From positions 1-55,869 of the forward strand of contig JBFJVD010000002.1 in the NCBI GenBank assembly GCA_041624375.1: 55,869 bases of DNA, written 5' to 3'. A program made the position numbers and the translations under genes. The notes under the pieces were generated by a model. That model ran no database searches. It was given only the letters and a program-made list of their open reading frames with translations, and had not been told where the DNA came from. Origin of the DNA: Anaerolineales bacterium. GTDB taxonomy: Bacteria; Chloroflexota; Anaerolineae; Anaerolineales; E44-bin32. Positions 4,875-28,301 of the stretch are shown piece by piece (positions within the stretch are counted from its first letter, which is position 1; each line of letters starts with the position of its first letter).

Positions 4875-4876
4875 GC

Positions 4877-5803
4877 CTAGGCGGGACCTGGCGGATGGGC
4901 ATCGGCGTGCGGCGGCCGGACGCCTTGCGGATCGACATCCAGCACGAAGGTTCGGGCGGCCAGCCCTGCCCGAGCGAAGCCGGCTTCCAGGGCTTCCGCG
5001 ATCGCTGGATGACCGGTGGGAGCGAAGGCGACGACGCCAGGCCCGGCGCCGGAGAGGGTGGCCGCGGCGGCGCCGGCAGCGAGTGCCGCCGCCACCGCTT
5101 CCGGGTAGCCCGGAATGTGCACGGCACGGTGCCGTTCGTGGAGCCGGTCTTTCATCACGTGTGCCAGAAGCTCGTAATCGCCGGATCGCAGGGCTTCTAC
5201 CGTCAGCAGGCTGCGTCCCAGATTGAATACGGCATCCTCCAGCGGAACACGGGCTGGCAGTGCCCGGCGCATCTCCGCCGTCGCGAGCGCCAATTCCGGC
5301 ACGGCGACCGCCACGCGCAGCGGCGGGGTTTCGATCCGCCGCGCCACTGGCGAGTTTTCGTCAGGGGCCACCGCCACCAGACCGCCGAGTAGCGCGGCCG
5401 CTGCATTGTCGGCGTGCCCTTCGAGCCCGAAGGCCAGCCTCAGCAATCGAGACGTGGTGAACGGCTCGGTGAGCAGCATGTTCGCAGCTGCGAGACCGCC
5501 AACGATCGCCGCAGCCGAGGAGCCGAGTCCGGAGGCAAGCGGGATGGCGTTGGCTGCCCGCAGCCGTAGGCCCGCTGGTTGTATGTCTGCGGCTTCGAAC
5601 AACCGCAGCGCGGCCTTCAACCCAAGGTGTTCACCGTCTACCGGCAAGGTCGCCGCGCCCTCGCCTTCGACCGCTGCCTGAAACCCACCGGCGGCGAACT
5701 CGAGCTCGACGCGGTTGTGGAGCGAGAGCGCCAGCGCGAGGCTGTCGAAGCCAGGCCCTAGATTCGCTGTCGAGGCAGGGACGAGCACGGCGGCGCGCTT
5801 CAT
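4877..5803 (-). CDS. thrB: Homoserine kinase
   Basis: VPASTANLGPGFD, GHMP motif IPLASGLGSSAAA, EGHADN, LSGAGP; overlaps thrC stop. Confidence 0.95.
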   Translation of the reverse strand: MKRAAVLVPASTANLGPGFDSLALALSLHNRVELEFAAGGFQAAVEGEGAATLPVDGEHLGLKAALRLFEAADIQPAGLRLRAANAIPLASGLGSSAAAIVGGLAAANMLLTEPFTTSRLLRLAFGLEGHADNAAAALLGGLVAVAPDENSPVARRIETPPLRVAVAVPELALATAEMRRALPARVPLEDAVFNLGRSLLTVEALRSGDYELLAHVMKDRLHERHRAVHIPGYPEAVAAALAAGAAAATLSGAGPGVVAFAPTGHPAIAEALEAGFARAGLAARTFVLDVDPQGVRPPHADAHPPGPA

Positions 5804-6925: not shown

Positions 6926-6964
6926 GATGGTTGCTGCCCGCTCTCCGGTGAGGTGCCGATCTCG

Positions 6965-8224
6965 ATGAAATCTCTCCCGCTCTCCGCTGCTCGCGCCCTG
7001 GCGCTGCACGCGCAACAGCTGGCGACTCCCTATGGCGAGGAGCCGGAGCCCCGGCCTGGAGCGATCGCCGCGCTCGTTGAGCGCCTGGGCGCCGTCCAGG
7101 TGGACACCCAGCAGCGCGTCCAGCGCAGTCACTACCTGACGATCTGGAGCCGGCTCGGCGCCTACGATCCGGACGATTTTGATCGCCTGATCTACCCCAG
7201 GCGGGCACAGGACGAAGCCCAACGGCTTCTCTTCGAAGATTGGTACCATGCCGCCTGCATCCTGCCGTTCAGCGAGTACCGTTACCGGCTGCCGCTGAAG
7301 CGCCGGCTGCGCAAGAAACCGGCGAACTTCACGCAGAGTTTGCTCAACAAGCAGGACAGCGATCATTTCCTGGCCTCTGTACTCAAGCGCATCGGCCGCG
7401 AGGGACCACTGGCCGTCTCGGATTTCAAGTCGGACGGCAAGCGGCGCGGCTCATGGTGGGATTGGCGCCCCGCCAAGGTTGCGCTGGAGCATCTGTTCGT
7501 GATCGGTGACCTGATGATCGCCGACCGGGTCCATTTTCAACGCTACTACGACCTGACCAAGCGGGTGCTGCCGGCGTGGGTGGATCGGCGCGTACCTTCC
7601 CAGGATGCGACCCTGCGGCACCTACTTGCGCGAAGCGTGCGTAGCTTTGGCATCTGCCGGCCGGCTCAGGCTGCGGATGCCGTGCATGAGCTTGGGCGCG
7701 GTCGCGTCCGCCCAATCGTCGAATCCATGATCGAGGAGGGGGTCTTCGTTCCAGTACGAGTTGAGAGCTCGGACGGAATCGATCTCGAGATGATGGTCCA
7801 CCGGGAGGACCGTCCCCTGCTGGAACGCGCCGCAGATGGGTCGCTGGCCGCGGCCCGTACAACGTTTCTGAACCCGTTCGACAGCCTGTTCTGGCCGCAG
7901 GGTCGCGACGAGGAACTCTGGGGGTTCGAGCAGGTCCTGGAAGCGTATAAGCCCGCTGCGCAGCGCAGGTGGGGGTACTTCTGCCTGCCCATCCTGCACG
8001 GTGATCGCCTCGTGGGTCGTTTCGATCCCAAACTGGAACGCGCGAATGGGACGCTGCGCCTCGTGGCACTCTACCTGGAACCCGGTGTGAAGCCGGATGC
8101 GCGGCTGATCGCCGGGGTTGCGCAGGCCCTGCGCGATTTTCTTGTCTTCCACCAGGCGACGGATGTGGTGATCGAGAAGAGCGAGCCGGCTGCATTCGGC
8201 CGCAAGCTCCTGGCGGCGCTTTAG
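6965..8224 (+). CDS. ycaQ: YcaQ/AlkZ-family winged-helix DNA crosslink glycosylase
   Basis: QVD catalytic-type motif (LGAVQVDT), WSRLG, WWDW, LNPFDSL, EAYKPAAQRRWGYFCLPILHGDRLVGRFD; ATG at 6965 after GAGGTG. Confidence 0.88.
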   Translation: MKSLPLSAARALALHAQQLATPYGEEPEPRPGAIAALVERLGAVQVDTQQRVQRSHYLTIWSRLGAYDPDDFDRLIYPRRAQDEAQRLLFEDWYHAACILPFSEYRYRLPLKRRLRKKPANFTQSLLNKQDSDHFLASVLKRIGREGPLAVSDFKSDGKRRGSWWDWRPAKVALEHLFVIGDLMIADRVHFQRYYDLTKRVLPAWVDRRVPSQDATLRHLLARSVRSFGICRPAQAADAVHELGRGRVRPIVESMIEEGVFVPVRVESSDGIDLEMMVHREDRPLLERAADGSLAAARTTFLNPFDSLFWPQGRDEELWGFEQVLEAYKPAAQRRWGYFCLPILHGDRLVGRFDPKLERANGTLRLVALYLEPGVKPDARLIAGVAQALRDFLVFHQATDVVIEKSEPAAFGRKLLAAL

Positions 8225-8283
8225 TTCGTCACCTCAGGGCCATACGTTCACTTGCCCGTAGCGGCAAGGACCGCCCGTTCGGC

Positions 8284-9057
8284 TCAGCGGGCGCAGGTCT
8301 GGCCACGCCCGCCGTCGATGGAATAGGTGGCACCCGTGATCCAGCCGGCATGGGGGGAGGCCAGGTAGTAAATCAGCTCGGCGACTTCCTCCGGCTGCCC
8401 GACCCGGCCGATCGGGTGCGTGGTATTGCTGTGTTCAAGAAACGCGGCATAGGATCCCTCATCCATCATCGAGGCGCGGTGCAGATTGGTGACAACAACG
8501 CCGGGGTTGACGGCGTTGACCCGCACACCTTTGCTCGCCATTTCCAGCGCGGCGCAGCGGGTGAGATGATCCAGCGCAGCTTTGCTTACGCAGTAGGCCA
8601 GGACCCCGGGAAAGGCGCGCAGCCCGTTCACGCTGGATACGTTCACCACGCACCCCTGGCGCGCGACCAGATGCGGCATCGCCAGGTGCATCAATAGGAA
8701 CGGCGCGCGCAGGTTGATTCCCATCATCTCGTCCCAATCGGCCAAAGCGGTCGTTTCAATGCTGCCGCCCTCGATGATGCCGGCGCTGTTGACCAGCACA
8801 TCGAGTCCACCGAGCGCATCCACCGTGGTTTCCAGCACTCGCTCGGTTTCTGCCGGGTGGGTGATATCGGCGGACAGGGCAAGCGCCCGGCCGCCATCGG
8901 CCTCGATCTCCCGCGCCAGTTCTTCCAGGATCGACTGGCGGCGGGCGACCAGCACCACAGCTGCGCCGGCTTGCGCGAAGCGCAACGCCGCCGCGCGGCC
9001 GATTCCACTGCTGGCGCCGGTGATCAAGACGGCTTTGGACTCCATGTCACGTGTCAT
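8284..9057 (-). CDS. Short-chain dehydrogenase/reductase (SDR)
   Basis: TGASSGIG, VNSAG, catalytic YCVSK, NAVNPG; AAGGAG RBS before ATG 9057. Confidence 0.92.
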   Translation of the reverse strand: MTRDMESKAVLITGASSGIGRAAALRFAQAGAAVVLVARRQSILEELAREIEADGGRALALSADITHPAETERVLETTVDALGGLDVLVNSAGIIEGGSIETTALADWDEMMGINLRAPFLLMHLAMPHLVARQGCVVNVSSVNGLRAFPGVLAYCVSKAALDHLTRCAALEMASKGVRVNAVNPGVVVTNLHRASMMDEGSYAAFLEHSNTTHPIGRVGQPEEVAELIYYLASPHAGWITGATYSIDGGRGQTCAR

Positions 9058-9260
9058 GATGGCACTCCTTGTGTAGCTCTCCGGATGAGGCCCGGGTGTT
9101 TTTGAAGGCGGCTTGGATTTTAGCGGATGTCCAGCGCGGGGCTCGGCATTGTCGTGGTTGGAGGCGGCGGAGCAGCCCTGAGCTTCTACGGACGGCCCAT
9201 CGTTGTCGGCCCTCATTCAGCATGCTATCCTGATCCTTAAGCCTGAGCCTGGGAGGCCCG

Positions 9261-10160
9261 ATGGAGCGCACGAGATACACCACCATTCACCGCAGCCTCG
9301 ACCGTGATTCCCCGCCGATGCGACTCTACGAGAAGGCCAAGCGCTACGGCCACTGGAATCCGAGCGAACTGGACTTCAGCCAGGATATGCAGGACTGGCA
9401 GACCTTCAGCCCAGAGGAGCGCGACCTGGTGCTCAGACTGAGCGCCATGTTTCAGGCAGGTGAGGAGGCGGTGACGCTCGATCTCCTGCCGCTGATCCAG
9501 GTGATTGCCGCGGAAGGCCGCCTCGAAGAAGAGATCTTCCTCACCACCTTCCTGTACGACGAAGCGAAGCACACCGATTTCTTTCGACGCTTTCTGGATG
9601 AAGTCGTCGGCGACCAAGGCGATCTCGAGCGTTACCACACCCCGAGTTATCGGGTAGTGTTCTACGTTGCGCTGCCGGCGGCGCTGCAAAACCTGCGCGA
9701 CGACCCTTCGCCGGCCACCCAGGCGCGCGCGGCAACGACCTACAACATGATCGTGGAAGGGGTGCTGGCCGAATCGGGCTATTATGCGTACCACCAGGCT
9801 CTTGAGACAAAAGGCTTGCTTCCCGGCGTGCGCGAAGGCGTGATCCATCTCCGCCGGGATGAGTCACGCCATCTGGCCTACGGCCTCTACCTGCTCTCGC
9901 GTCTGATCGCCGCCGACGCGTCCCTGTGGGAGGTGGTCGAGGAAACGATGAACGCCTTGCTAACCCCGGCTGTAGGGATGATTGGCGAAGCGTTTTCCCA
10001 CTACGACCCGATCCCGTTCGGGCTGAACGAGGAGGAATTTATCGGCTACGCGATGGGCCAATTCCAGAAGCGTTTCGAGCGATTGGAGCGGGCCCGTGGT
10101 GCTTCACAGGGCGATGTGGTGCGGGAAGCCCTGGCGCACATTGAAGCCGAGGACGCCTGA
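9261..10160 (+). CDS. R2-like ligand-binding oxidase (R2lox, Mn/Fe ferritin-like)
   Basis: GEEAV, DEAKH, YNMIVEGVLAE, DESRH metal-ligand pattern; GGAGG RBS; no RNR large subunit nearby. Confidence 0.88.
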   Translation: MERTRYTTIHRSLDRDSPPMRLYEKAKRYGHWNPSELDFSQDMQDWQTFSPEERDLVLRLSAMFQAGEEAVTLDLLPLIQVIAAEGRLEEEIFLTTFLYDEAKHTDFFRRFLDEVVGDQGDLERYHTPSYRVVFYVALPAALQNLRDDPSPATQARAATTYNMIVEGVLAESGYYAYHQALETKGLLPGVREGVIHLRRDESRHLAYGLYLLSRLIAADASLWEVVEETMNALLTPAVGMIGEAFSHYDPIPFGLNEEEFIGYAMGQFQKRFERLERARGASQGDVVREALAHIEAEDA

Positions 10161-10243
10161 GTCGCCCTGCGCGGGCTTCTCTGCGCCGCAATCGAGTACG
10201 CTGATGAAACGAAGCAATCCACCTGAGCAGTGAGGAGAAGAAC

Positions 10244-11401
10244 ATGGCCGAAATCGCCGCCCGTCTGGCGAATTTCACCGAATCGGTTATCCGCGAGATG
10301 ACCAGGGTGGCCGATCAACATGGGGCCATCAACCTTTCGCAGGGCTTCCCCGACTTTGACCCGCCGCACCAACTGATTGAGGCCGCCGGCCGTGCGCTCG
10401 ACGAGGGCTACCATCAGTACGCCGTGACCTGGGGGTCGCCGCGCTTCCGCAAAGCGCTGGCCAAGAAGCAGCGCCGCTTCATGGGGATCGACATCGATCC
10501 CGACGCCCATATCACCGTCACCTGCGGCAGCACAGAGGCGATGATGGTGGCGATGATGACGGTCTGCAATCCTGGCGATCGAGTGATCGTCTTCTCTCCG
10601 TTCTATGAGAACTACGGCGCCGACACGATCCTGTCCGGCGCCGAGCCGATCTATGTCCCGCTGCACCCGCCGGACTTCACCTTTGACCTGGACGAGCTGC
10701 GCCGGGCCTTCCAGCGCGGGGTGAAAGCGCTTGTACTCTGCAACCCCTCCAACCCTACCGGGCGTGTCTTTCGTCGGGAGGAGCTTCAGACCATCGCTGA
10801 TCTGGCTCAGGAATTTGATGCCTTTGTGCTGACCGATGAGGTCTATGAGCACATCGTCTATGAGCCCCATGAGCACGTCTACATCGCTAGCCTGCCCGGA
10901 ATGTTCGAACGCACGCTGTCCGGCAGCTCGCTCTCGAAGACCTACGCCATCACCGGCTGGCGCCTGGGCTATGTGATCGCCCCGGAACGGGTGACGGCCG
11001 GAGCACGCAAGGTCCACGATTTCCTCACCGTCGGGGCCCCCTCACTCCTCCAGGAGGCCGCCGCCACCGCACTGGCGTTCCCAGACGAGTACTACCGGGA
11101 GCTTCAGGCCGATTACACGCGGCGGCGCGATGTCTTTCTAGAATACCTGGATGAAGTTGGGTTGCGCTACACGCGACCGGAAGGCGCCTATTACGTCCTG
11201 GTGGATGTCTCCGAATTCGGCGTCGAAGACGACACAGCGTTCTGCAAGTGGCTGGCGCGTGAAGTTGGGGTGGCCGCGGTGCCCGGCTCCAGCTTCTTCC
11301 GTGAGCCGGTCCAGCATATGATCCGCTTCCACTTCGCCAAGCGCGAGGAGACGCTGCACAAAGCTGGCCAGCGTCTGCTGCGGCTGAAGGAGAAGGTCTA
11401 G
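10244..11401 (+). CDS. PLP-dependent aminotransferase class I/II (YbdL-like)
   Basis: NLSQGFPDF, NPSNPTG, DEVY, SLSKTYAITGWRLGY. Confidence 0.92.
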   Translation: MAEIAARLANFTESVIREMTRVADQHGAINLSQGFPDFDPPHQLIEAAGRALDEGYHQYAVTWGSPRFRKALAKKQRRFMGIDIDPDAHITVTCGSTEAMMVAMMTVCNPGDRVIVFSPFYENYGADTILSGAEPIYVPLHPPDFTFDLDELRRAFQRGVKALVLCNPSNPTGRVFRREELQTIADLAQEFDAFVLTDEVYEHIVYEPHEHVYIASLPGMFERTLSGSSLSKTYAITGWRLGYVIAPERVTAGARKVHDFLTVGAPSLLQEAAATALAFPDEYYRELQADYTRRRDVFLEYLDEVGLRYTRPEGAYYVLVDVSEFGVEDDTAFCKWLAREVGVAAVPGSSFFREPVQHMIRFHFAKREETLHKAGQRLLRLKEKV

Positions 11402-16519: not shown

Positions 16520-17803
16520 TTAACTCGAGCGGGCCAAACCTACACCGGCCAGCACCCGCAGCGCGGCGGCGAGCAGCAGCACATTGCGCAGACCGAGACC
16601 CACCGCCAGCAGCGGGCCAAGCAGCGATCCGGCAAGGATCCCCAGGTTGAGGACAAGGTTGTGAAGCGCCATGTGCGCGGGGGCATCCTCCGGCGGCACC
16701 CGATCCATAAGCTGGTGTGTGAGCCCGACGTTGGCGACAGCCCACACAGCGCCGCCCAGCGCGCTGGCGATCAGGTAGAGCGCGGGGCCATCCGCCAGTG
16801 CGGTCAGCAAGGGAAACTGGCCATAGAGCAGCGCGCCAAGCACGAGAACACGCCGCTGGCCCCAGCGCGCAGCCAGCTGCTCGCTGGAGAGCGATATGAG
16901 CAGCATGCTGGAAAAGAAGAGCCCGTTGCCGATGCTGATGGTCCATTCGCTGAGACCCAATTCTCGGACAAAGAGAAGCGGGAATAGCGGAATCGGGAGG
17001 AACTGAAAGAAGTAGAAGAAGAAGTACGCGCCCATCAGGCGCCCGAAATCGCGGCGGATCAGGGACGGACGGAGCAGGGCTCCGGGTTGGGCGCGCGTAA
17101 GGAATCGCAATCCCGTCGTCGGCCGCATGGCATCGAAGACCCGCATCAGGCCGGGGCGGGCCGCGTCTCCGATGGGCTGGCTGTGGCGCTCCGGGCTGTC
17201 CGCAGCGAGCCGCATCTGGCCCAGCATCCAGCTGCTGAGCGCAGCGCCGGCGGCGCCGATCGTGAAGACCAGCTGATAGTTCAGTGGGTAGGGCAGCCGA
17301 ATGAGCAGCTGGCCGCAGCCGAGCGTGGTGAGCGTTGTCACGACCGCCAGCAGCGCGTTGCGCTGGCCGACCACCCGCGCCCTCCGTGCTGCCGGGACGG
17401 CATCGGCGAACAAGGCATTGAAGGCGATCGCCAGCACCGTGCCGGGCAGGGACATGACCAGCACCAATAGGACCAGCGCCTCCGGCTGTGCTGCCGGGGC
17501 GATCAGCCAGGGCAGCGGAATGAGCAGCAGATAAGCCAGCCGGTGCCAAACGGACGACCAGAAGGTGGAATGCACCAACGACCGTCCAGCGAGCATGCGC
17601 CCCGCAGGAAGCGATAGGGCCAGCTGGACCGCTGCGGGACCGGCCGTGAGCAGTCCGATCTCAAAGGCCGTCGCGCCGAGCTGGGTGGCGAAGATGGTCA
17701 GAAACGCGAGCGTGCTGCCGGCGAGCAGGCCATAGGCGGCGACGTCCGCGTAGAGAAGGCGCAGGTTGCGTTCAATGCGTTGCGAGTTCGCTGTGAGGGT
17801 CAT
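16520..17803 (-). CDS. MFS transporter
   Basis: About 12 hydrophobic segments in two halves separated by a hydrophilic loop; start chosen at MTLTANS. Confidence 0.82.
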   Translation of the reverse strand: MTLTANSQRIERNLRLLYADVAAYGLLAGSTLAFLTIFATQLGATAFEIGLLTAGPAAVQLALSLPAGRMLAGRSLVHSTFWSSVWHRLAYLLLIPLPWLIAPAAQPEALVLLVLVMSLPGTVLAIAFNALFADAVPAARRARVVGQRNALLAVVTTLTTLGCGQLLIRLPYPLNYQLVFTIGAAGAALSSWMLGQMRLAADSPERHSQPIGDAARPGLMRVFDAMRPTTGLRFLTRAQPGALLRPSLIRRDFGRLMGAYFFFYFFQFLPIPLFPLLFVRELGLSEWTISIGNGLFFSSMLLISLSSEQLAARWGQRRVLVLGALLYGQFPLLTALADGPALYLIASALGGAVWAVANVGLTHQLMDRVPPEDAPAHMALHNLVLNLGILAGSLLGPLLAVGLGLRNVLLLAAALRVLAGVGLARSS

Positions 17804-17873
17804 CGAGCGGCCGGGAAGAATGGAGCTGCGGTGTCGATCGATTGCGGCTTGGGCTGAGGTTATGCGGCCGCCG

Positions 17874-20800
17874 TCAAGCGGTCTCGCCATTGAGCGCCTG
17901 GCGTACCAGCCGGGCCAGCGTCTCCGAATTGAGCGGCTTCTGCACCCAGACCACCTGCTCGCGGTCGAGCAACATGCGCGTGTTCCGACCGAGAGGGTAG
18001 CCGGTCATCAGGATCATGCGCAGCTCCGGATAGCGCTCCTTGAGCTGATGGTAGAGGTCCACGCCACCGAGCTCGGGCATCACCATGTCGCTGATCACGA
18101 TGTCGATTTCCTCGGGCTGGGCTTCGAAGACCTTGAGCGCTTGCGCACCGTTCTCAGCCATGAGGACATCGTAGTTCAGCGACTGGAGAATCTCGCAGAC
18201 CGCCTCGCGCGTTGCGGGCTCGTCTTCCACCACAAGGATGGTCTCGCGTCCGCCGCGCAGCGGCGCGGGCCGCTCCCAGCTTCGCACCTCTTCGGCAACG
18301 GCAATGTCGAGCGCGGGCAGGTAGAGCACAAACGTGGTGCCTTCGCCGACGCGGCTGACAACGTCGATATAACCGTTGTGCTGCTTGATGATGCCATAGA
18401 CCTGCGCCAGGCCGAGACCGGTTCCCTGCCCCGGGGCTTTGGTGGTGAAGAAGGGTTCAAAGATGTGGGGCAGATCCTCAGGTGTGATGCCTTGCCCGCT
18501 ATCGGTAATCTTGATCCGGACCCAGTCGCCCTTCGGCATCCCGCGGAAGGGGGATGTCTGGCCCGGGCGCACCCGCCAGCGGTCGACCTCGAAGCGGAGC
18601 CAACCGCCTTCCCGCATCGCATCGCGGGAGTTCAAGGCCAGGTTCATGAAGACCTGCTGGAAACGGGCCGGGTCCACCCGGATCATCTCTCCATCACCGG
18701 CATACTCCAAGTCGAGCTGGATGCTTTCCGGCAGCGTGCGCTCGAGCAGTTTCATGAACTCCTTGAGGAACGGGATCAGATCGATCGGGATCATGTCCAT
18801 GATCGTCTGACGGCCGAAGTCCAGGATCTGGCGGGTGAGGGTGGTGGCCCGGTGGGCCTGTTCAATCACCACCGAGAGCCGTTCGCTGCCCTTCGGCGTG
18901 AGGTCCGGCTCATCGAGCAGCATCTCGCTGAAGAGGATGATGGCGTTCATAATGTTGTTGAAGTCGTGGGCAATGCCGGCTGCAAGCTGGCCGACCGCGG
19001 CCAGGCGGTCCTGCTGGTGGACGCGGTTCTGGACCCGGCGGACTTCGGTGACGTCGCGCAGAAGGACCGTCCAACCCGGGTTCTCTTCTTCACCGGACAT
19101 CGAAGTGGCCAGCACTTCGTAGGTCCGCTCCTCACCGTTCACGATGCGTAGTTCGTGTGGCAGGCCGTCCGATCGGGTTTCGAGCAAGCCGCCGATCGGG
19201 CGCCCGCCGAGCACGCTGAGCTTCTCACCTTCCTCGACCCCAGCCAGCAGATCCAGGTAGCGCTTGGCGGTGGGGTTGGCATGGATGATCCGCAGGTCGC
19301 CATCGAGGGTGACGATGCCCTCCTGAACGGTCTCGAGGATCAGCTCCAGCTGCCTTGCCTGGCGCCGGATCTGCTCGATCAGCTTCAGGCGCTCGACGGC
19401 GCCGCCGAGCTGCGAACCGATGGCGTCGGCGAGCGCAACCTCTCCTTCGCTCCAGGCGCGGGGGAAACCGGAAGCCAGGATGAGGCCGCCCATCGTCCGA
19501 CCTTCGCGCCGCAGCGGGACGGCAAGGGAGGCGCGCACGCCAAGATCGAGCGGCACGGCCACATGCGCCGGCTCGGGCGAGCGCGCCAGCCGCTGCTCCC
19601 AATCCTGCACAATGAGCGGGCTGGTGAGGTTGCGGGTCCCGATGAAGACCCTGGAAATCGGTGTCTCGCCGTAGAGTTCCGGCAGGCCGCTGTGCTCGAC
19701 CAGCGGCGGGTTGTCCAGCCAGGCAACGCCGCGTTCAAGACCGAGCGCGTTGAGGGTCTCACGCAGGGCTACTTTGAGCAGGTCGGTGAGCTCGGGCGCA
19801 GCTGCAGCGGCGGAGATGACGGCGTTGAGGGCGCTTTGCTGTGCCGCCCGTTGGCGCGCTTCCTCAAACAGATCGGCGTTGGCCAGGGCCAGCGCGACCT
19901 GATTGGCGAGTGCCGAAAGCAGATCAATGTCGTGGCGCGGATAGAAGTCGTCGGGATCCCGACGCCCGAAGAGCCAGATGCCGATCGGCTGCTCGCGCAC
20001 TTCGAGCGGGATCGCCACCCTCACCCAGGCAAGCGGAGATTGGTCCCGGTCCGGTTCGGGGCGGTAGCTGCCCGCCTGCTCCAGCAGTGCGTCGAGCACA
20101 CCGTGCTCCTGCGGCAGGCTGGTAGGCTCGACTCCTTGATGGTAGATCACCGTTGCCGGTTGGCCGCGGGTGAAGACGGCCAGCGCGGATTCACGGATCA
20201 GCAGGCTCGGGGCGACCGCATCACGCAGCAGCTGGACCAGTGCCTGGCGATCGGCGACGGTTGGGATTTGGGCGGCGAAGTAGCGCAGCAGCTCGTCGGG
20301 GTTGTGGCGCGTGCCGTATGCCAGCCGGTCGAAGGCGCGCTGGTAGGCGCTGCGCAGCACGGGCGCAGCGGCGACGAACACCGCCGAGAGCACCAGGCCA
20401 AGGAAGATCGATTCGGTTGAGGCGCGAATCCAGCGGATGCCGAGCACGTAGACGAGCGTGAAGGCGGTCACATAGACCAGCAGGAAGCTGTAGTTGCTCA
20501 ACAGGCGGCTGATGCGGAATTCCAGGTTGCCGGACTGCCGCCGGTAGAGGGCATAGGTGTAGAACAGCGGCATCGCTGGCAAGGACAAGGCAGAGATGGC
20601 GCTCAGCCAGAAGGATGCCAACCGAGCACCAGTGAGGGTGGGGACGGCCCACAAGATCACCCCCGGGCCAAACGCCAGGGCAATGCCTACCAGCAGCCAG
20701 CGCGTCGCCAGCCGTTCGGCCGGGGAACCGCGCAGCCAGCGGTAGAAGAGCAGCCCCAGGCTCGCACCGACGCCAACCAGCAGTCCAAGCAGATAGAGGG

Positions 20801-21536
20801 ACGGGGGGAGGACTTGAAACACCTCAAGCCCGGTTAGGACTCCGGCGATCGCATACAGGCTGATAAATGGCCAGCGCATCTGCTGGCGGATCAGTGGTGA
20901 AGGAACGATCAGGTGCAGGTGGACGTAGGCGGCAACCATCGCCCAGGTGACGGCGCCGAGCACGATCGACGAATAGGCGATGCGGGTAAAAGACACACTC
21001 CCGGCCACCAGCCAGACCGCGGTGAGATAGAAGACCAGGATGAGAGCCAGCCAGCGGTCGTCGCGCGGCCGGAGGAAGAGCAGCACTGCTGTTCCGGCGA
21101 GCCAGAACGGCAGGAAGATCAACGTGCCTGAAAACCTGAGCAGCCGGTCATCGAGCGTCACCGGTGGCATGGTCCATTCGGCTTCCACTGTGCGACCGGC
21201 GCGAAGCAAGCGGAGCGGGAGACGGTCTCCCGGCTGGAAACCTTCGAATGGAACGACGACCAAATTGCCTTCGTAGGTTTCTTTGGTGAGGTCCCCGAGC
21301 TGGAGGAGCACATCCCCGGGCAGCACGCGGCCGGCGACCGCCTCACACCACAGCTCGCGCCCCTGGCAATTGCTGAGCGCATACACGCGCAGGGTTTCGT
21401 CGTGGTCGATTCCGGGGTAGGGCGCGGCGTAGGTGTAGCTGAGCGTGAAGGTGAGGCATACGCCCAACACGATCAGTGAGAGCAGGCCAAGCAGCCACTC
21501 TCTCTCGCGGAACACTCGCTTGTCCGAGTCGGCCAT
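17874..21536 (-). CDS. Membrane hybrid sensor histidine kinase (TM, PDZ-like, ~9 TM, GAF, GAF, PAS, HisKA, HATPase, REC); ComP-like input
   Basis: PDZ-like loop ([11 protein letters not shown]...[13 protein letters not shown]), ~10 TM helices, two GAF-type segments, PAS ([16 protein letters not shown]), H-box AHDFNN, N box [11 protein letters not shown] boxes DSGQG/GTGLGL, REC (VVEDE, SDMVMP, QKP). Confidence 0.92.
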
Positions 21537-21544
21537 GACCAGCC

Positions 21545-22489
21545 TTATGCGAGCAACTCTTCGGGCACCTCCGCCCCGACCTCTTCGAGCAGGTGCACCA
21601 AGGGACGGAGCTGCTGAACCAGTAACTCTAGCATGCTCTCCCGCCGGGGCAAGTCCAGCGAATCGATCTGCGCTGCCGCCTGGCGATGGCGCAGGAGCAG
21701 GTGGTAGGCGCAGTAGCTCACCGCGCCGCCGCGAATCAGGATCTGCTGGGCCTCCGCCAGGCGCGCCGGATCGTCAACCTGCGCGGCCAGCTCTGCGAAG
21801 CGCTCCTGATCCGTATGGTCGGCAGTGAGCGCGTAGCGCAACAGCAGGTTGTTGCCCGGGTGGCGCCAATCGGGGTTGGCCGGCGATTCGAAGGCATCGA
21901 GCAAATCGTCGTGGAGCTGGACCACCTCACCGACAAGAATTCCGATGTCGTACAGGCCGTCGGCAACCTCCGGCGCAGCGCCGCCGAGCAGGGCTCCGAG
22001 CTGCAGGGCCGCGCCATAGAACGGGGTGCTCTTGGCACGGACCACCGCCCAGTACTCCTCCTCGGTGGCCGGATGCTGCGCGTCGAGATGCTGGCCGCGA
22101 GCGGTCTCGAGCAGCATGGCGCTCAACTGTCTGATCGCCTCCGCGCGGCGTTCCGCGGGAACATCGGCGCGTGCCAGGGCATGGAAGGCGGCCGACTGCA
22201 GCCCAAGCGCCAGGTTGGCTGTCGGCCCGACTCCCTGGCGAACATGTTCGCCGCGCGGATCCTCGTCGAGCATGTCATCGACGAAGATGATGCTGATCTG
22301 GCTGAGAAGGATCGCCGCTGCAGCGGGTAGCGCCTGTTCTGCTTCAGCGCCGACGGCCTCACAGGCGGCCAGTGGAAGCGACCAGTCGATGCTCCCGCCA
22401 GCAGCCTCAAGCAGCTCGTTCAGTTCTGGCCAGCTGCTGACCTCTGGCAGGTCTTGCAGATAGGCTTTAACGTCGGCGATCTCGCTCAT
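21545..22489 (-). CDS. Isoprenyl-synthase-fold prenyltransferase, ComQ-like (putative peptide Trp prenyltransferase)
   Basis: DDMLD, GQHLD, KS, QLHDDLLD; lacks the N-terminal GGKRxRP and the post-FARM RRG IPP-binding motifs of chain-elongating synthases; lies between the small Trp-tailed peptide and the sensor kinase. Confidence 0.8.
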   Translation of the reverse strand: MSEIADVKAYLQDLPEVSSWPELNELLEAAGGSIDWSLPLAACEAVGAEAEQALPAAAAILLSQISIIFVDDMLDEDPRGEHVRQGVGPTANLALGLQSAAFHALARADVPAERRAEAIRQLSAMLLETARGQHLDAQHPATEEEYWAVVRAKSTPFYGAALQLGALLGGAAPEVADGLYDIGILVGEVVQLHDDLLDAFESPANPDWRHPGNNLLLRYALTADHTDQERFAELAAQVDDPARLAEAQQILIRGGAVSYCAYHLLLRHRQAAAQIDSLDLPRRESMLELLVQQLRPLVHLLEEVGAEVPEELLA

Positions 22490-22537
22490 GCGTCCCTGCT
22501 CGAATACTCCCTGAACCGGCGATCTTCGATTAAATGA

Positions 22538-22594
22538 CGGCGCGCCGCGTATCGGTCCACGGAATAGATTTCCATGGAGCGCTGCAGCGCGCCG
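22538..22594 (-). terminator. GC-rich stem-loop between the peptide gene and the prenyltransferase (possible partial terminator or mRNA stabiliser)
   Basis: Minus strand CGGCGCGCTGC...TCCATGGAA-ATCTA-TTCCGTGGA...GCGGCGCGCCG; no strong U-tract. Confidence 0.45.
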
Positions 22595-22647
22595 GCAACT
22601 CAGAAGATAAAGATGTCAGTTGCGCACAGGCAACAAGTATCGCTCGA

Positions 22648-22815
22648 CTAGCGCCCCCACCACCATGCCGCAAGCGCGTAGGCCGTCGTCGCAGCGGTCA
22701 CGTCCTCAGGCCTCTCGATCCTCGTCAGCTTGCGCAGTGCCTCTAGCCAGGCTTCTTCCTTGCGCTCAGAAGTAATCAACTTGCTGAACTCATGGATCGT
22801 CAGTGCTGTATCCAT
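22648..22815 (-). CDS. 55-aa ComX-like pheromone/RiPP precursor (not in the ORF track)
   Basis: GGAGG 7 nt before ATG; translates to MDTALTIHEFSKLITSERKEEAWLEALRKLTRIERPEDVTAATTAYALAAWWWGR*; Trp at positions -3 to -5 from the C-terminus; directly upstream of the prenyltransferase. Confidence 0.8.
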   Translation of the reverse strand: MDTALTIHEFSKLITSERKEEAWLEALRKLTRIERPEDVTAATTAYALAAWWWGR

Positions 22816-23004
22816 TTGTTCCCCTCCGGCAGTGAGTTACTTTCTACGCGACAGCGTGCATCGGCTGCAGACCGAACCTACCCCTGGAGCCTCTGCGTGA
22901 CGATTACCTCCTCTCTTCTGAGTTAGGGCAGACACAGAAGATTGCCCGCCATTAAATAGGAACAGCCTGTGCGTTTGTGCTGTCGCGCTCCCTCAATAGT
23001 GTCC

Positions 23005-23069
23005 AGTATAGAGAATTCTTGCAGAAAAATAAATAGCCACATATGTCGGTTTTAACGTGACAAACGACA
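23005..23069 (-). promoter_or_regulatory. Putative promoter and upstream inverted repeat for the peptide operon
   Basis: Minus strand -10 TATACT (23005-23010) with a poor -35; AT-rich region; TGTCG-N16-CGACA inverted repeat at 23044-23069. Confidence 0.5.
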
Positions 23070-23111
23070 GGGGTAATGGTTTTCTAACCTCGGGATAACG
23101 TCCGCGCAGGT

Positions 23112-24278
23112 TTACAGGGGTTCGGTGCGCGTCAGCCGGCTCTCGATTCCGCGCTCCGAGAGCGCGGAAAAGAAGCGCCCGGCGTCCACCGCCTGCTCCG
23201 GTGGCCAGACTCCTGGCTGCTCCAGCGAGCGGTCCGCCAGCCAGCGGCCGACGACCGCCGGCGGGCTGGCCACCATCAGCTTGCCGCCCGACATTCCCCA
23301 CCGTTCATGCGGCCAGGCGGTGGTATCCATCCGCAGGCGTTGCGCTTTCCCATTCGAGCCGCCGTCGACCACGGTGACCACATCCTTGAACCCCAGCGTC
23401 TTCGGCGGCAGCTGGGCAGCCGGCGACTGGCGCAGGAGGGCGATCAGCACCTCGCGCGGGGCGACCTGAACGCCGCCCACCTCGATCGGATCCCGGCGCG
23501 CGAAACCCAATTCGGCCAGGAACTGGAGTTTGCGGAGGGCCGGCTCGGCGTAGCCGAAAAAGGTGATTTTGAAGAAGCACTCGCGGATGCCCTTCTCGGC
23601 AAAGGTCAGTGGGATGGTGGCGACCTCGGAGTGCAGGCTGAGGTGGGTCTTGGCGTGCCCGATCGGCTCGGGGAAATCGAAGAACTCCTCCTCGCCCAAT
23701 GGGGGCGCCTCGACGAAGCGGCCCTCGCGAAAGACCATCGCCGGCTGGCTGATCTCATCCAGGATGGTGTCCACCGAATAGGCCCAGGACAACGACTCGC
23801 CCTCGTCGAGCGTGCTGCCATTGTAGATGCGGACCGACTCGATCGTGTCGAGCATGGCGCCCAGGTGGCCGGCCTGCACGTTGGCCACGCCGGGACAGCT
23901 CCCCAGACCCAGCAGCGCCGTCACGCCGGCCTCGCGGAACGCCTCGCCCAGCTCAAGCTGCTCTCGGGTGGTGTGGAACAAGCCGCCCAGATCAAGGTAC
24001 GGGACCCGAGCCCGCAGGCACCCTTGCATGACGTCGAGGTTGAAGTAGTACTGCACGCTGTTCAGGCAGGCGTCTGCGCCGGCGAGCACCGCATCCAGCG
24101 ATTGCGGATCCGTGACGTCGACCTGCGCGGGAGCAGCCCCGCCCCCGAGACGTTCGGCCGCTCGATGGGCGCCGGCTTCATCGAGATCTGCGACGATGAC
24201 TTCTCCGACATCTTCAACCAGGTCCTGTGCGATGGCCGAACCGATGATCCCCGCTCCGCCTAGCACGACGATCCGCAT
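23112..24278 (-). CDS. Saccharopine dehydrogenase-family oxidoreductase
   Basis: Rossmann VLGGAGIIG, YLDLGG, GLGSCPGVAN, HSEVATIP. Confidence 0.88.
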   Translation of the reverse strand: MRIVVLGGAGIIGSAIAQDLVEDVGEVIVADLDEAGAHRAAERLGGGAAPAQVDVTDPQSLDAVLAGADACLNSVQYYFNLDVMQGCLRARVPYLDLGGLFHTTREQLELGEAFREAGVTALLGLGSCPGVANVQAGHLGAMLDTIESVRIYNGSTLDEGESLSWAYSVDTILDEISQPAMVFREGRFVEAPPLGEEEFFDFPEPIGHAKTHLSLHSEVATIPLTFAEKGIRECFFKITFFGYAEPALRKLQFLAELGFARRDPIEVGGVQVAPREVLIALLRQSPAAQLPPKTLGFKDVVTVVDGGSNGKAQRLRMDTTAWPHERWGMSGGKLMVASPPAVVGRWLADRSLEQPGVWPPEQAVDAGRFFSALSERGIESRLTRTEPL

Positions 24279-24307
24279 GCGCGTGACTCCTCAATCAGTC
24301 TGCGGCG

Positions 24308-25765
24308 TCAGTCCCAGGGGTACCACCAGGACTTCACGCCGCCTTCGATCTCCCAGTGAAGGTGCTTTGTTTCGAGGAAGGCTTCAAAACCCTCCTCGCC
24401 GAGCTCGCGCCCCAGCCCCGATCGCTTCATGCCGCCAAACGGCCCGGCCAGGTTGTCGATCAGCGGGTCGTTCACCCATACATTTCCCGCCTCGATGGTC
24501 TCCATGTAGCGCTTCACCCTGCGCGCGTTGCGGCTGAAGAGCGTGGCGCCAAGCCCGTAGTGCCCGCGGTTGGCGCGCTCCAGCGCCGTTTCGAAATCGT
24601 CCACCGGGACGATCGGCAGCACGGGACCGAAGGTCTCCTCCCGCATCAGCAGCATGTCGTCATCCACTTCGGTCAGCACGGTGGGCGCGTAGTAGTAGCC
24701 GCGATCCGGCTCGGCGGGGATGGCGCCGCCGGTATGGGCCACCGCGCCCGCCTCGAGCGCCTGCTCGATGTGGCGGATGACCTTCTCCCGCTCCTGCGGT
24801 CGGATCATCGGCGTCACTTCGCTTTCTGGATCCGAACCAGGCCCGATCGTCAGATGCCGGGTGAGGTCCAGTATGCGCTCGAGCAGCGGCTCGAAAGCCG
24901 GCGCCTCGACGAAGGCGCGCTCGATCGAAGTGCAGACCTGCCCGGCGTTGAGGAAACCGCCCCACACGGCTGCGCGGGCCGCAGCCTCCAGATCCGCATC
25001 GGCGCAGACGATCAGCGGATCCTTCCCCCCGAGCTCAAGGTTGATCCGCTTCAAATCATCCGCTGCGAGGCGCATCAGATGCTGCCCGGTCTCGACGCTG
25101 CCGGTGAAGGCGATCATGCGCACATCCGGATGCCGGGCCAGCCGTTCGCCGACCACCGGTCCGTCGCCGCTGACAAGGTTGACCACGCCGGCGGGCAGGT
25201 GATCGAAGATGCGCTGCAGGCCGAGGGTGGTCCAGGGCGTGTACTCCGCCGGTTTGACGACCACGGTGTTGCCCGCTGCAAGGGCAGGGGCCAGTTTCCA
25301 GGCGAGCAGGAGCAGGGGATAATTCCACGGGAGGATGGCGGCGACGACTCCCAGTGGCGCCTTCAGCACCAGCGAAAGCTGACCCGGCTCAGGTGAGGGG
25401 ATCACGCGGCCTCGATGGTGGCGCCCTAGCTCCGCGTAGTAGTCGAAGCACTCGGCCGCCCACTCCACGTAGCCGCGATTCTTGCGGATGGAGCGGCCCG
25501 TTTCCATCGTCAGCTCGACGGCCAACGTCTCTTTGGAGGCCCGCATGCGGCGGGCAATCTCATGCAGCAGCCCGGCACGCTCGGCGGCAGGCACGCGCCG
25601 CCATTCTTTGAAGGCGGCGCGCGCGGCAGCGACAGCGCGATCCGCATCGACCTCGGTTCCCCAGGCGACCTGCCCAACAACCTCCGTAGTTGCCGGATCG
25701 ATGACCGGCTGGGGTTCGCCGCTCCCGCTGGTCCGCTGGTTGTTGATCCACAGATCCCGCATCAC
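24308..25765 (-). CDS. Aldehyde dehydrogenase
   Basis: PWNYP, FTGS, ELGGK, NAGQVC catalytic Cys, EETFGP, PFGGMKRSG. Confidence 0.95.
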   Translation of the reverse strand: MMRDLWINNQRTSGSGEPQPVIDPATTEVVGQVAWGTEVDADRAVAAARAAFKEWRRVPAAERAGLLHEIARRMRASKETLAVELTMETGRSIRKNRGYVEWAAECFDYYAELGRHHRGRVIPSPEPGQLSLVLKAPLGVVAAILPWNYPLLLLAWKLAPALAAGNTVVVKPAEYTPWTTLGLQRIFDHLPAGVVNLVSGDGPVVGERLARHPDVRMIAFTGSVETGQHLMRLAADDLKRINLELGGKDPLIVCADADLEAAARAAVWGGFLNAGQVCTSIERAFVEAPAFEPLLERILDLTRHLTIGPGSDPESEVTPMIRPQEREKVIRHIEQALEAGAVAHTGGAIPAEPDRGYYYAPTVLTEVDDDMLLMREETFGPVLPIVPVDDFETALERANRGHYGLGATLFSRNARRVKRYMETIEAGNVWVNDPLIDNLAGPFGGMKRSGLGRELGEEGFEAFLETKHLHWEIEGGVKSWWYPWD

Positions 25766-25773
25766 GCCTCCGC

Positions 25774-27084
25774 TCAGCGTGTGGTGCGCTTCACCGCCTC
25801 CTCGAACGTATTCAACGTTTCGGCGATCACCGCTTCATCGTGGCTGTAGGAGAGGAACCAGGGTTCGCGTCCGTCCGCATCCGGCATCACGCCCAGCTCG
25901 CACAGCACGAAGGCCAGCTTTTCATAGCGCGCATGGTCCGATTTGAGGTAGTCGCGGAAATCGCGCGGTTCCTGATCGCGACCCAGACCGATGCCGAACA
26001 TGCCGGGCACGCCAGTGATCGTGTGGGGGATGCCGGCGTCGGAGAGGATCTCACCCAGGCCGCTCATGAGCAGCCGGCCGTTCTGATTCAGGGTCTCGAG
26101 CACCGGCTCTTCTTCGAGGATTTCGAGCGTGGCAGAGGCGGCTGCGGCCCCGACCACGCTGCCGGAATAGGTGCCGCCGTGTGCCGTCGCGCCCGGCTCG
26201 ATGGTCATCATCACCTCGTCTTTGCCGGCGATGGCCGCGATCGGAAAGCCGTTGCCGAGCGCCTTGGCGTACGTGACCAGGTCGGAGCGGACGCCGAAGT
26301 AGGCCTGAGCGCCGCCGTTGGCCATGCGGAATCCGGTTTTCACTTCGTCCATCACCATGACGATACCGTACTCATCGCAGAGCTGGCGGATGAGCTGAAG
26401 AAAGCCCTCTTCCGGCATCACACCGGCGGCGTTGCCCAACATGGGCTCAACAAAGATGGCGGCAAGATCGCCCCAGTGGGCGCGCACCGTCCTTTCCAGC
26501 AGTTCGCCGTCATTAAAGGGCAGGCTCAAGACGTATTGCGCGATGGCGGTGGGTATCCCGGAGGTTGATGGAATCGGGATCGGGCTGCGGCGCGAGCCCA
26601 TGACACTCAGCGGAGTCGAGGCCGTGCTGTACATGAAGTAATCGACCATCCCGTGGTACTGCCCCTCGAACTTGATGAACTTCTCACGCCCGGTGTGCGC
26701 GCGGGCGATCCGCAGGGCGTGCATCGTCGCCTCGGTGCCCGTGTTCGTCAGCCGGACTTTGTCCACGCCGCAAAGGCGGCAGATGCGCTCAGCGACCTCG
26801 ATCTCGAGCGGAGTGGTCCAGGCAAACAAAGTGCCCCCTTCGATCGCCTGCTGCACGCGCTGCACCACCCTGGGTTCTGCATGCCCAAGGATCAGCGGAC
26901 CGAAGGCAAGCCGGTAGTCGATGTAGCGCTTGCCGTCCGCATCCCAAATGTGAGGGCCTTCACCGCGGGTGATCACCAGCGTGTCGTCAGGGCCCCAGTA
27001 GCGGAAATTGGAGTTGACGCCGTAGGGTATGAACTGCTGGGCTCGCAGGAAGGCGTTGCGGGTTTCAGGTCCTTGGAGTGGCAT
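25774..27084 (-). CDS. Class III aminotransferase (GSA-aminomutase-like fold)
   Basis: DADGKRYIDY, GTEAT, FEGQYHG, DEVKTGFR, PLP Lys in YAKALGNG, HGGTY. Confidence 0.9.
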   Translation of the reverse strand: MPLQGPETRNAFLRAQQFIPYGVNSNFRYWGPDDTLVITRGEGPHIWDADGKRYIDYRLAFGPLILGHAEPRVVQRVQQAIEGGTLFAWTTPLEIEVAERICRLCGVDKVRLTNTGTEATMHALRIARAHTGREKFIKFEGQYHGMVDYFMYSTASTPLSVMGSRRSPIPIPSTSGIPTAIAQYVLSLPFNDGELLERTVRAHWGDLAAIFVEPMLGNAAGVMPEEGFLQLIRQLCDEYGIVMVMDEVKTGFRMANGGAQAYFGVRSDLVTYAKALGNGFPIAAIAGKDEVMMTIEPGATAHGGTYSGSVVGAAAASATLEILEEEPVLETLNQNGRLLMSGLGEILSDAGIPHTITGVPGMFGIGLGRDQEPRDFRDYLKSDHARYEKLAFVLCELGVMPDADGREPWFLSYSHDEAVIAETLNTFEEAVKRTTR

Positions 27085-27140
27085 GGCTAGGGTTCTCCGT
27101 CATTGGCCCCGGCGTCGCGCACCGGAAGATTGGGCGGGTC

Positions 27141-28301
27141 TCAGGCGATCGTCCCCGCTTCGACGATGGTTTCTTCGATGGTGATGCCCCGCTGCGCCAG
27201 CTCTTGAAAGAAGCGTCCCGTGGGCAAGGCCTGTTCGGGCGGCAGCACGCCGCGTCCCTCAGCTTCGCCCCCGGCGATCAGCTGGGCGCCGATTGAGAGT
27301 GGAACGCCAACGTTTTTGAAATAGGCCGCTTCATCGCCCCACGCTTCCTGGGGCGGATGGTGGCTGCGGTAGGTGCACTGCATGCGCCGTCCCCGCCGTT
27401 GGCCGCTGACCTCGACCACCAGCCCGTACCCCCAGACAGGGTTTTCTGTGGAGAAGGGGCTGTCGGCGAGCAGCGCACGGGTGGCTTCGATCGCTGGAAT
27501 CTGGGATCCGTTGATGGTGACCGGGCGGGAGGAGAGCAGCCCGGCGTGCATGAGGGCCGCCATGGTTTGCATCACGTGGGGCGGGAAGCAGCCGCGCACG
27601 GCCGCCCGCCGCAGCGAGGGATAGGAGGCCGGCAAGGTGTAAGCCTCATCGTGCGGCACGTAGTACACCCGCTGTTCGCCGATGTGCTCGTGGAAGCGGA
27701 CCGTCACCTCACCGGTCAGCGGCGGCGTGGCATGCCACGACCCCGCTTCGAAATAGACTTCCTGGCGCGCCTCTTCCTCCGGGTTGAACTCCCAGAGGGT
27801 GGTCTGGAGCAGCCCCGGAGCCGGCGCAAGGCAGCGGAAGGCGGCAAAGTAGATCTCCACGCGCTCCAGCGAATCAAGCTGCTCGGCGGCCTGGCGCACC
27901 ATCAGATTGGTGATCCCCGGCGTTGCGCCCACCCCGGGAACGAAGAGCATGCCTTTGGCCTCGGCTTCCGGGTGAAGAGCGAATTGGGCGTCGTCGCTCG
28001 AGAGGTCCAGCCCGTTGACCCCAAGCTCGACACAGACCTGGTTCACCGCCAGGTCGTAGCGGAAGGGCAGACCATTGATGACGATCTCAAAGTCGGGGAA
28101 GAGAGAACGCATGGCGTCCTCATCGTTGGCGTCGAACGCCAAGGGCTTGAGGCGTGCGTCGCCGATGTCCTGCGCCAGGCGCTCGACCGCCGCCTGGTTG
28201 TAGTCGGCGAGGACGATCTCTGAAAAATCGCTTGTCGAGGCCAGGTCGCGCGTGGTCTCCTTGCAGACGGCGCCGGCAGCGCCGAGGACGAGCGCCCTCA
28301 T
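27141..28301 (-). CDS. Saccharopine dehydrogenase-family oxidoreductase (second paralogue)
   Basis: VLGAAGAV, GVGATPGITN, PHDEAYTLP, GVLPPEQ. Confidence 0.85.
   Translation of the reverse strand: MRALVLGAAGAVCKETTRDLASTSDFSEIVLADYNQAAVERLAQDIGDARLKPLAFDANDEDAMRSLFPDFEIVINGLPFRYDLAVNQVCVELGVNGLDLSSDDAQFALHPEAEAKGMLFVPGVGATPGITNLMVRQAAEQLDSLERVEIYFAAFRCLAPAPGLLQTTLWEFNPEEEARQEVYFEAGSWHATPPLTGEVTVRFHEHIGEQRVYYVPHDEAYTLPASYPSLRRAAVRGCFPPHVMQTMAALMHAGLLSSRPVTINGSQIPAIEATRALLADSPFSTENPVWGYGLVVEVSGQRRGRRMQCTYRSHHPPQEAWGDEAAYFKNVGVPLSIGAQLIAGGEAEGRGVLPPEQALPTGRFFQELAQRGITIEETIVEAGTIA

Follow-up and report, generated by a model that had tools for sequence, protein, structure and literature searches.

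A trans-prenyl-synthase-fold enzyme of Anaerolineales encoded between a tryptophan-tailed peptide and a sensor kinase: a putative peptide tryptophan prenyltransferase

The DNA analysed here is a stretch of 55,869 nucleotides (nt) from an Anaerolineales bacterium (assembly GCA_041624375.1, contig JBFJVD010000002.1), called the window below. On its minus strand it carries three closely spaced genes, which are read in the following as a candidate peptide-signalling cassette. The central gene encodes the enzyme Q. The gene for X, a small peptide, lies 158 nt upstream of the Q gene, with GGAGGGG 6 nt ahead of its ATG, and the gene for a hybrid histidine kinase of 1220 amino acids (aa; 17874-21536, minus strand) starts 8 nt downstream of the Q stop codon. 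The features are collected in Table 1.

Table 1. Positions in the window of the enzyme, peptide and kinase genes and of neighbouring features
Feature	Position	Strand	Basis
Q, trans-prenyl-synthase-fold enzyme, proposed peptide tryptophan prenyltransferase, 314 aa	21545..22489	minus	ATG start, PF00348, structure model
GGSIDWSLP, residues 31-39 of Q, at the position of the canonical GKRxRP isopentenyl diphosphate (IPP) site	22373..22399	minus	translation and paralog alignment
First Asp-rich motif DDMLD of Q, then E-D-P-R-G, residues 71-80 (RRG loop shortened)	22250..22279	minus	translation, alignment, family census
Q191 and intact second Asp-rich motif DDLLD of Q, residues 191-198	21896..21919	minus	translation, family census
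X, precursor-like peptide, 55 aa, ending AAWWWGR (W51-W53)	22648..22815	minus	open reading frame list, ribosome-binding site, homologs beside the enzyme in relatives
Spacer between X and Q, 158 nt, with an imperfect hairpin of about 55 nt	22490..22647	minus	centroid fold
Kinase sensor module, residues 1-430: transmembrane helix, beta-rich extracytoplasmic domain of about 90 aa, about ten helices in a predicted membrane region	20247..21536	minus	hydropathy, structure model
Kinase cytoplasmic part: two GAF domains, PAS, HisKA (PF00512), HATPase_c, receiver domain	17874..20246	minus	Pfam
Major facilitator superfamily (MFS) transporter gene; 17-nt overlap with the end of the kinase gene	16520..17890	minus	open reading frame and Pfam

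An earlier note, made from the letters of the window, had described DDMLD followed by EDPRGEH, GGSIDWSLP and an intact DDLLD in Q, and all three could be read in the translation of the 314-aa open reading frame (ORF). Residues 31 to 39 are G31-G32-S33-I34-D35-W36-S37-L38-P39, residues 71-82 are DDMLDEDPRGEH (D71-D72-M-L-D75-E-D77-P78-R79-G80-E-H82), and DDLLD occupies residues 194-198 (D194-D195-L-L-D198). The Pfam scan of Q gave PF00348 at 73.8 bits (cut-off 27). Q reached no NCBIfam equivalog cut-off; the top score was 90.1 bits of the 450 set for a polyprenyl-transferase encapsulin-cargo model, and IdsA and GGPP_syn gave 75.8 of 468 and 49.5 of 500, respectively. A ComQ model was not found among the Pfam or NCBIfam results.

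The AlphaFold2 model of Q, built from a 19-sequence alignment, had a pLDDT of 90.9 and a pTM of 0.89. Archaeal and bacterial synthases of geranylgeranyl diphosphate (GGPP) or polyprenyl diphosphates matched it with Foldseek TM scores of 0.75-0.82, and VIA-align superposed it on the GGPP synthase 1wy0 with a Z of 30.7 and a root-mean-square deviation of 2.8 Å over 294 residues. The best 50 rows each of Foldseek (library ending April 2026) and VIA-align held only canonical synthases and no ComQ or StheQ structure. The ESM Atlas search returned 'polyprenyl synthetase' clusters only. With the archaeal GGPP synthases 5jfq and 1wy0 (identity 23-25%), Q shares the fold, both Asp-rich motifs, the Lys and the Gln; it differs from them in lacking the basic residues of the IPP site, in its gained aromatics and in its genomic company. 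Five and four positions ahead of the first motif, Q has Ser and Ile in place of aromatic residues. This would leave room for a deep prenyl pocket, which is speculation from the sequence.

The window genome (3.07 Mb, 374 contigs, 85% complete) holds three other PF00348 matches besides Q. One of them is a full-length paralog of 339 aa (L001:1342-2361), whose gene adjoins that of a type-2 IPP isomerase and whose motifs are GKRIRP, HDDIQDESDTRRG, GKTSALL, FQILDD and GKPAGDDLIRRKKT. In the BLASTP alignment (31% identity over 226 aa), G-K-R-I-R-P of the paralog stands against G31-G32-S33-I34-D35-W36 of Q, and the His located 7 residues ahead of the first Asp-rich motif against Q64. The T-R-R-G of the paralog aligns with gap-gap-R79-G80, the loop in Q being 2 residues shorter, and GKPAGDD...RRKKT, which follows the second Asp-rich motif (SARM), with PANPDW...LLRYALT. 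K153, Q191 and both Asp-rich motifs are kept in Q. We take GKRxR, the pre-motif His, RRG and the post-SARM Lys to form the IPP diphosphate site, and the kept residues to bind the allylic donor. The earlier note had considered RRG missing; the loop is indeed short, but one Arg and the Gly remain (P-R-G), and the motif is therefore degenerate rather than wholly absent.

The same division recurs in five further genomes that hold a family member; each carries two to three canonical paralogs (PF00348 at 204-227 bits) and exactly one Q-type protein (60-75 bits). Twelve full-length canonical ORFs, 11 from these five genomes and one from the window genome, have GK[RK]xR in 11 cases and RRG in 10, and neither motif is present in any of the five Q-type proteins examined. 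Judged from these alignments, the allylic-diphosphate and metal site of Q is predicted to be intact and the IPP site to be lost, family-wide.

The family is large. A word-indexed search with Q gave 802 matches at E<=0.001 among 8000 candidates scored; among the matches listed, 119 proteins besides the window's own (P0002, 100%) had 49-61% identity. Those relatives that have a name bear the label 'polyprenyl synthetase family protein' or 'geranylgeranyl pyrophosphate synthase', as the earlier note had anticipated when it supposed that annotation pipelines would label such proteins as GGPP synthases. In a profile search over 1.84 billion cluster representatives, 14,577 proteins were found at E<=0.001, 2,915 at 1e-10 and 258 at 1e-30.

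The motif pattern was near-invariant in a census of 270 family proteins, so it is a trait of the family and not a chance feature of Q. At the first motif, D71 occurs in 260 proteins, D72 in 256 and D75 in 261; K153 is kept in 264 and Q191 in 267. At the second motif, D194 occurs in 265 (N in 3), D195 in 268 and D198 in 267. D207 and W208 were each counted in 265 proteins, and W36 in 231 (21 gaps). Where canonical enzymes carry Lys or Arg, basic character is not conserved in the family: K and R are absent from the commonest residues at position 32, position 35 is Asp in 132 of the 270, and R79 stands at the RRG position in 168. W20, W36, W208, Y219 and Y259 are conserved aromatics gained by the family compared with canonical synthases.

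Two results bear out the distinct clade that had been proposed for Q. The best 150 representatives score at least 226 bits each with the family profile, compared with only 74 bits for the top solved structure, a synthase. Furthermore, IQ-TREE (LG+C20 PMSF) separated 85 Q-type rows from 12 canonical rows on one branch with an SH-aLRT support of 100. This was a quick, thinly rooted search whose rows exclude ComQ, StheQ, PalQ, ChrPC and Ord1 and in which long branches meet at the Q/canonical split, and the tree therefore speaks for separateness from the canonical paralogs and says nothing on origin.

The distribution of the family is patchy, since only 6 of 401 evenly sampled genomes of the phylum (window genome included) carry a member at E<=1e-40. 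A first scan of genome contigs with the single Q protein found no relative. A second scan, with the family alignment as query and one genome per species, found 189 relatives, and the best 80 loci were kept; counts of 80 loci below refer to these. They come from Anaerolineae and other Chloroflexota, from Thermoanaerobaculia and Holophagales (Acidobacteriota), from one Truepera (Deinococcota) and from one metagenome-assembled genome labelled Promethearchaeota. The enzyme of the latter (L014) nests among Anaerolineales in the tree and the same peptide and kinase occur at its locus; L014 probably belongs to Chloroflexota and ended up in the bin of an archaeal genome.

The peptide X ends in AYALAAWWWGR, which puts W51-W53 at positions -5 to -3. 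It was matched by tblastn in 19 loci, and a hidden Markov model (HMM) built from these found X in 56; in the other loci that extend upstream, a similar ORF scores just below the threshold (E 0.07-18). The final HMM gave 92 X ORFs, a count that is partly circular for 20 peptides because they entered the last HMM by position. They lie beside Q in 76 of the 80 loci, and exactly one is present in the 55.9-kb window; in the 4 loci that lack X, the contig breaks off within 500 nt of the enzyme gene on its upstream side. The 92 ORFs share the strand of the enzyme gene without exception, 78 lying upstream and 14 downstream between enzyme and kinase, and none elsewhere in the loci. The 14 downstream ORFs are in Acidobacteriota, with two copies. 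When the X profile was run over the whole 3.07-Mb genome, the single match was the X ORF of the window, and in one other genome the single match lay just upstream of the enzyme gene there.

Within the last 32 residues of the 92 ORFs, 83 have WxxW, 2 have WxW and 7 have a single W, and in a 30-sequence alignment the only invariant residues are F10, W51 and W53. The earlier note had suggested that Q transfers its prenyl group to an acceptor other than IPP; this is strongly suggested by the finding that the conserved adjoining peptide carries C-terminal tryptophans.

Among close relatives, the identity of the X core was 0.72 and that of the leader 0.86 (16 pairs). Pherotype diversification is known for ComX, and the more variable core of X gives a weak hint, at the level of sequence, of a similar diversification. 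In Acidobacteriota, two X genes stand around the enzyme gene in L045, L056, L060-L062, L064, L065, L073, L075, L076, L079, L080 and L084, and three in L048; in these peptides a tail of about 7-25 residues follows WxxW, which is thus not terminal. The X ORF appears frameshifted in L033 (5687-6010) and L058 (1612-1819), with the leader and the WxxW tail in different frames, which could be due to sequencing error or decay.

The third partner of the cassette is the sensor module of the kinase. It was modelled with a pLDDT of 88.8 as one helix, a beta-rich domain of about 90 residues across the membrane, and about ten helices, and 16 columns are invariant among 23 sensor-module sequences. No Pfam family was assigned to the module, its extracytoplasmic stretch having no Pfam match at E<=10, and its model had no Foldseek match in the PDB at E<=0.001. 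In tblastn searches with the neighbours of the window's Q gene, the N-terminal module of the kinase was found in 74 of the 80 loci. Where it was not found, the enzyme gene touches the contig end (L005, L043, L046), less than 400 nt are available upstream in a clade with the kinase upstream (L039, L051), or the adjoining kinase is present with an unmatched sensor (L054, Truepera).

Only the sensor module and the first GAF-like stretch are common to the loci, and the outputs differ. The window has a hybrid HisKA kinase with a fused receiver and no adjoining GerE regulator. In L034, the only scanned locus of the window's sister clade, the kinase is divergently upstream and has HisKA_3 (PF07730) and HATPase_c, and a REC and GerE regulator follows the enzyme gene. 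The cluster of this regulator occurs in 24 of 81 loci and is carried by the sister clade of the window's enzyme (22 tree rows). A REC-EAL protein is encoded upstream in 13 Acidobacteriota loci. The sensor module thus accompanies X and Q while the outputs are exchanged, as one would expect of a dedicated receptor.

PDZ domains bind C-terminal peptide tails. The beta-rich domain (21129-21434, minus strand; kinase residues 35-136) resembled the PDZ domains of HtrA and DegS in Foldseek at E 0.04-0.1 over about 95-107 columns, and this likeness, which comes from a model, is a lead that is attractive on account of that binding habit. In one Anaerolineales clade (L041, L043, L052 and L072; about 1680-5470 and 6950-10730), X and Q are flanked by genes of the kinase cluster of about 1254 aa. 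One kinase gene lies upstream and one downstream in L041, L052 and L072, the downstream copy of L052 being cut at 500 aa; L043 has the upstream gene only, and its contig ends inside the enzyme gene.

From the features of the sequence, from the fold and from the conservation of the three genes side by side we infer that Q is a peptide tryptophan prenyltransferase resembling ComQ, PalQ and StheQ and belonging to a peptide-signalling cassette, and we put the probability of this reading at about 0.7. Q would no longer condense IPP. With its Asp-rich motifs, K153 and Q191 it would hold an allylic prenyl diphosphate, and the prenyl group would pass to one of the tryptophans, or to both, in the W-x-x-W tail of X (W-W-W in the window). 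The conserved N-terminal part of X would serve as a leader guiding recognition, and the lipidated C-terminal piece would be cleaved and exported. The membrane module of the adjoining kinase probably senses this lipopeptide and drives the kinase. The cassette would thus work like ComX/ComQ/ComP of Bacillus, in a different phylum.

Compared with the known systems, the locus shows a mixture of shared and deviating features. The ComQXPA census looked for a PF00348 enzyme, a precursor of 52-73 aa whose C-terminal 5-10 residues include a Trp, a multi-pass kinase with HisKA_3 and HATPase_c, and a REC-GerE regulator, the four genes standing on one strand, and it reports no such system outside Firmicutes (PMC4008528). 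The window has a PF00348-type enzyme, a 55-aa precursor with a near-terminal Trp and a multi-pass sensor kinase, and the HisKA_3 and HATPase_c kinase and the REC and GerE regulator of L034 are of the same domain types as ComP and ComA. The first Asp-rich motif and the isoprenyl diphosphate synthase (IPPS) fold are likewise shared with the ComQ family (IPR033965). On the other hand, the order in the window is X-Q-P instead of Q-X-P-A, its kinase is of the HisKA PF00512 type with a fused receiver and not of PF07730, no DNA-binding regulator adjoins, and the second Asp-rich motif of Q is intact with no Asn-initial pseudo-motif.

In Paenibacillus alvei, a kinase (PalP), a precursor (PalX) and a Trp prenyltransferase (PalQ) are encoded in one cluster (PMC10853753). 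PalX has an NHLP leader, which enhances modification, and a terminal Trp; PalQ conserves both Asp-rich motifs, carried a terpene synthase annotation and, in a network, clusters by itself and apart from the polyprenyl synthases (PMC10853753). The window is like this cluster in bringing together a kinase, a precursor and an enzyme of the isoprenoid-synthase superfamily, and in the kept second Asp-rich motif. It differs in that Q is a clear PF00348 member and that X, which ends in W-W-W-G-R and has no Pfam match, stands against the NHLP-type leader and strictly C-terminal Trp of PalX.

The nearest case is StheQ of Sphaerobacter thermophilus, which farnesylates the penultimate Trp of the 69-aa StheX in vitro and for which crystal structures are given (bioRxiv 10.64898/2026.08.29.745113, 31 Aug 2026). 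It belongs to the same phylum in the wide sense (Chloroflexi) and has the all-alpha IPPS fold, an adjoining small ORF with C-terminal tryptophans, a DxxxDxD first motif, and a Lys and a Gln 38 residues apart, as K153 and Q191 are in Q. By description, its second motif is the ComQ-type N-D-x-x-D, compared with the near-invariant D-D-x-x-D of the Q family. StheX lies downstream of its enzyme gene, whereas X lies upstream, is shorter and has a different conserved leader with WxxW. The preprint does not mention a histidine kinase (10.64898/2026.08.29.745113). Chloroflexi and Acidobacteria are likewise not mentioned in a 2026 review on prenyltransferases of this kind (PMC13290415). Our literature searches found no paper on the Q family or on a ComQ-like system in Anaerolineae or Acidobacteriota, the StheQ/StheX preprint being the closest. 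Going by its sequence features, the locus would work like the ComQXPA, PalPXQ and StheQ systems but lacks defining features of each. It is kept apart from the ComQ family because of the intact second motif, the missing ComX or NHLP match, the different gene order and, in the window, the different kinase type.

Several points weigh against the view that Q is a tryptophan prenyltransferase of a signalling cassette. Asp begins the second motif in 265 of 270 family proteins and Asn in only 3, whereas ComQ and StheQ have Asn; replacement of this Asn by Asp is reported to cut activity by about 90% in ComQ and about 98% in StheQ (N215D; 10.64898/2026.08.29.745113). If Q is a tryptophan prenyltransferase, it thus departs from the ComQ solution. 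Q is also much closer to canonical synthases (31% to its own paralog, Z 30.7) than StheQ, for which 19% is reported. X has no match to the Pfam ComX family (PF05952), or to any other Pfam family, at E<=10. The 20 X peptides mentioned above, a divergent sub-family, were recruited by position and sub-threshold scores (E 0.07-18). Moreover, neither a protease nor an exporter is conserved in the cassette among the neighbour clusters of the 80 loci.

The best surviving alternative, which we consider improbable but worth weighing, is that Q prenylates X and the product is a secreted RiPP (a peptide made on ribosomes and modified after translation), such as a membrane-active lipopeptide, the kinase regulating only production or immunity. 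PalX and PalQ were found by antiSMASH as a RiPP cluster (PMC10853753), prenylated tryptophan peptides can be antimicrobial (PMC10853753; PMC13290415), and the MFS gene overlaps the kinase stop codon in the window. Nevertheless, the travelling part of the kinase is its membrane sensor (74 of 80 loci), with the outputs swapped; the MFS gene had no tblastn match in any of the 80 related loci, and no immunity-like or exporter gene is conserved across them.

Rather less likely still, Q could use a non-peptide acceptor or make a terpene-like small-molecule signal, and X could play a different part, such as that of a regulator or kinase partner. A lost IPP site with a kept donor site would suit any non-IPP acceptor, and Ord1, an enzyme of the same fold, prenylates free tryptophan (PMC13290415). 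This reading has to contend with the two tryptophans that are the only invariant residues of X outside its leader, and with the position of X on Q's side and strand in all 92 cases. Furthermore, the trans-isoprenyl diphosphate synthase-like peptide prenyltransferases characterised so far, namely ComQ, ChrPC and PalQ, are all Trp-specific (PMC13290415). StheQ likewise acts on tryptophan (10.64898/2026.08.29.745113), and these precedents also speak for the main reading.

We hold it very unlikely that Q, in line with its annotation, elongates chains as a normal GGPP or polyprenyl diphosphate synthase whose IPP site is atypical. The PF00348 score above cut-off, the kept Asp-rich motifs, K153 and Q191, the GGPP synthases among the closest solved structures (in the best rows listed) and the R79 that 168 of 270 proteins keep at this position of the RRG motif would agree with such a function. 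However, the basic residues of GKRxR and the post-SARM segment and the pre-motif His are replaced family-wide, all NCBIfam equivalog scores are far under their cut-offs, the clade splits off with a support of 100, and PF00348 paralogs are already present in the genome, among them a full-length canonical one encoded beside the type-2 isomerase gene. An ordinary synthase would also leave the fixed association with a Trp peptide and a sensor kinase unexplained. That Q is catalytically dead and serves only as a binding scaffold for X or the kinase, a reading considered solely for the lost substrate-site residues and with nothing direct in its favour, is the least probable of all, since the near-invariance of the metal- and diphosphate-binding residues over 270 proteins argues for catalysis.

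Beyond the prenyltransferase reading itself, a more far-reaching version may be put forward tentatively; we hold it to be well short of an even chance. The Q family would then be an independently derived, large lineage of Trp prenyltransferases with a full two-motif metal site, modifying the WxxW tail, possibly at both tryptophans. The receptor would be of a new class, in which the PDZ-like domain grips the C-terminus of the peptide and the helical bundle takes up the prenyl chain, with interchangeable outputs (kinase and receiver, kinase and LuxR-type regulator, or cyclic di-GMP enzymes). If so, lipidated-peptide quorum sensing would be widespread in uncultured Chloroflexota and Acidobacteriota of sediments, soils and sea water.

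Signalling by prenylated-Trp peptides has so far been a speciality of Firmicutes, to which one very recent preprint adds an enzyme-peptide pair from a Chloroflexi isolate. The present family is large, is routinely mis-annotated as GGPP synthase, and has a precursor-peptide family and a sensor module of its own. The phyla that host it, for the most part uncultured, are dominant in many sediments and soils. If the prenyltransferase reading is true, a widespread annotation would be corrected, a testable entry into the cell-to-cell signalling of these phyla would be gained, and peptide engineering would have at hand new Trp-lipidating enzymes whose active site is solved differently, by an intact second Asp-rich motif.

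The surroundings of the three genes were also inspected. The spacer between X and Q folds with a z of -1.62 relative to shuffles over the whole stretch, which is not significant; no terminator-like site was called in it, and no Rfam family was found within 21400-23200. The promoter scan found no promoter-like site, the organism possibly using other promoter types, and terminator-like sites did not exceed the expectation from shuffles. The hairpin of the spacer could set the ratio of peptide to enzyme transcript. Because of its 17-nt overlap with the kinase stop codon, the MFS gene is probably co-transcribed with the kinase; it may be a lineage-specific exporter or unrelated. Upstream of the cassette, the region 23112-28301 (minus strand) encodes two saccharopine-dehydrogenase-like proteins, an aldehyde dehydrogenase and a class-III aminotransferase, and looks like an operon for amine or amino-acid catabolism unrelated to the cassette.

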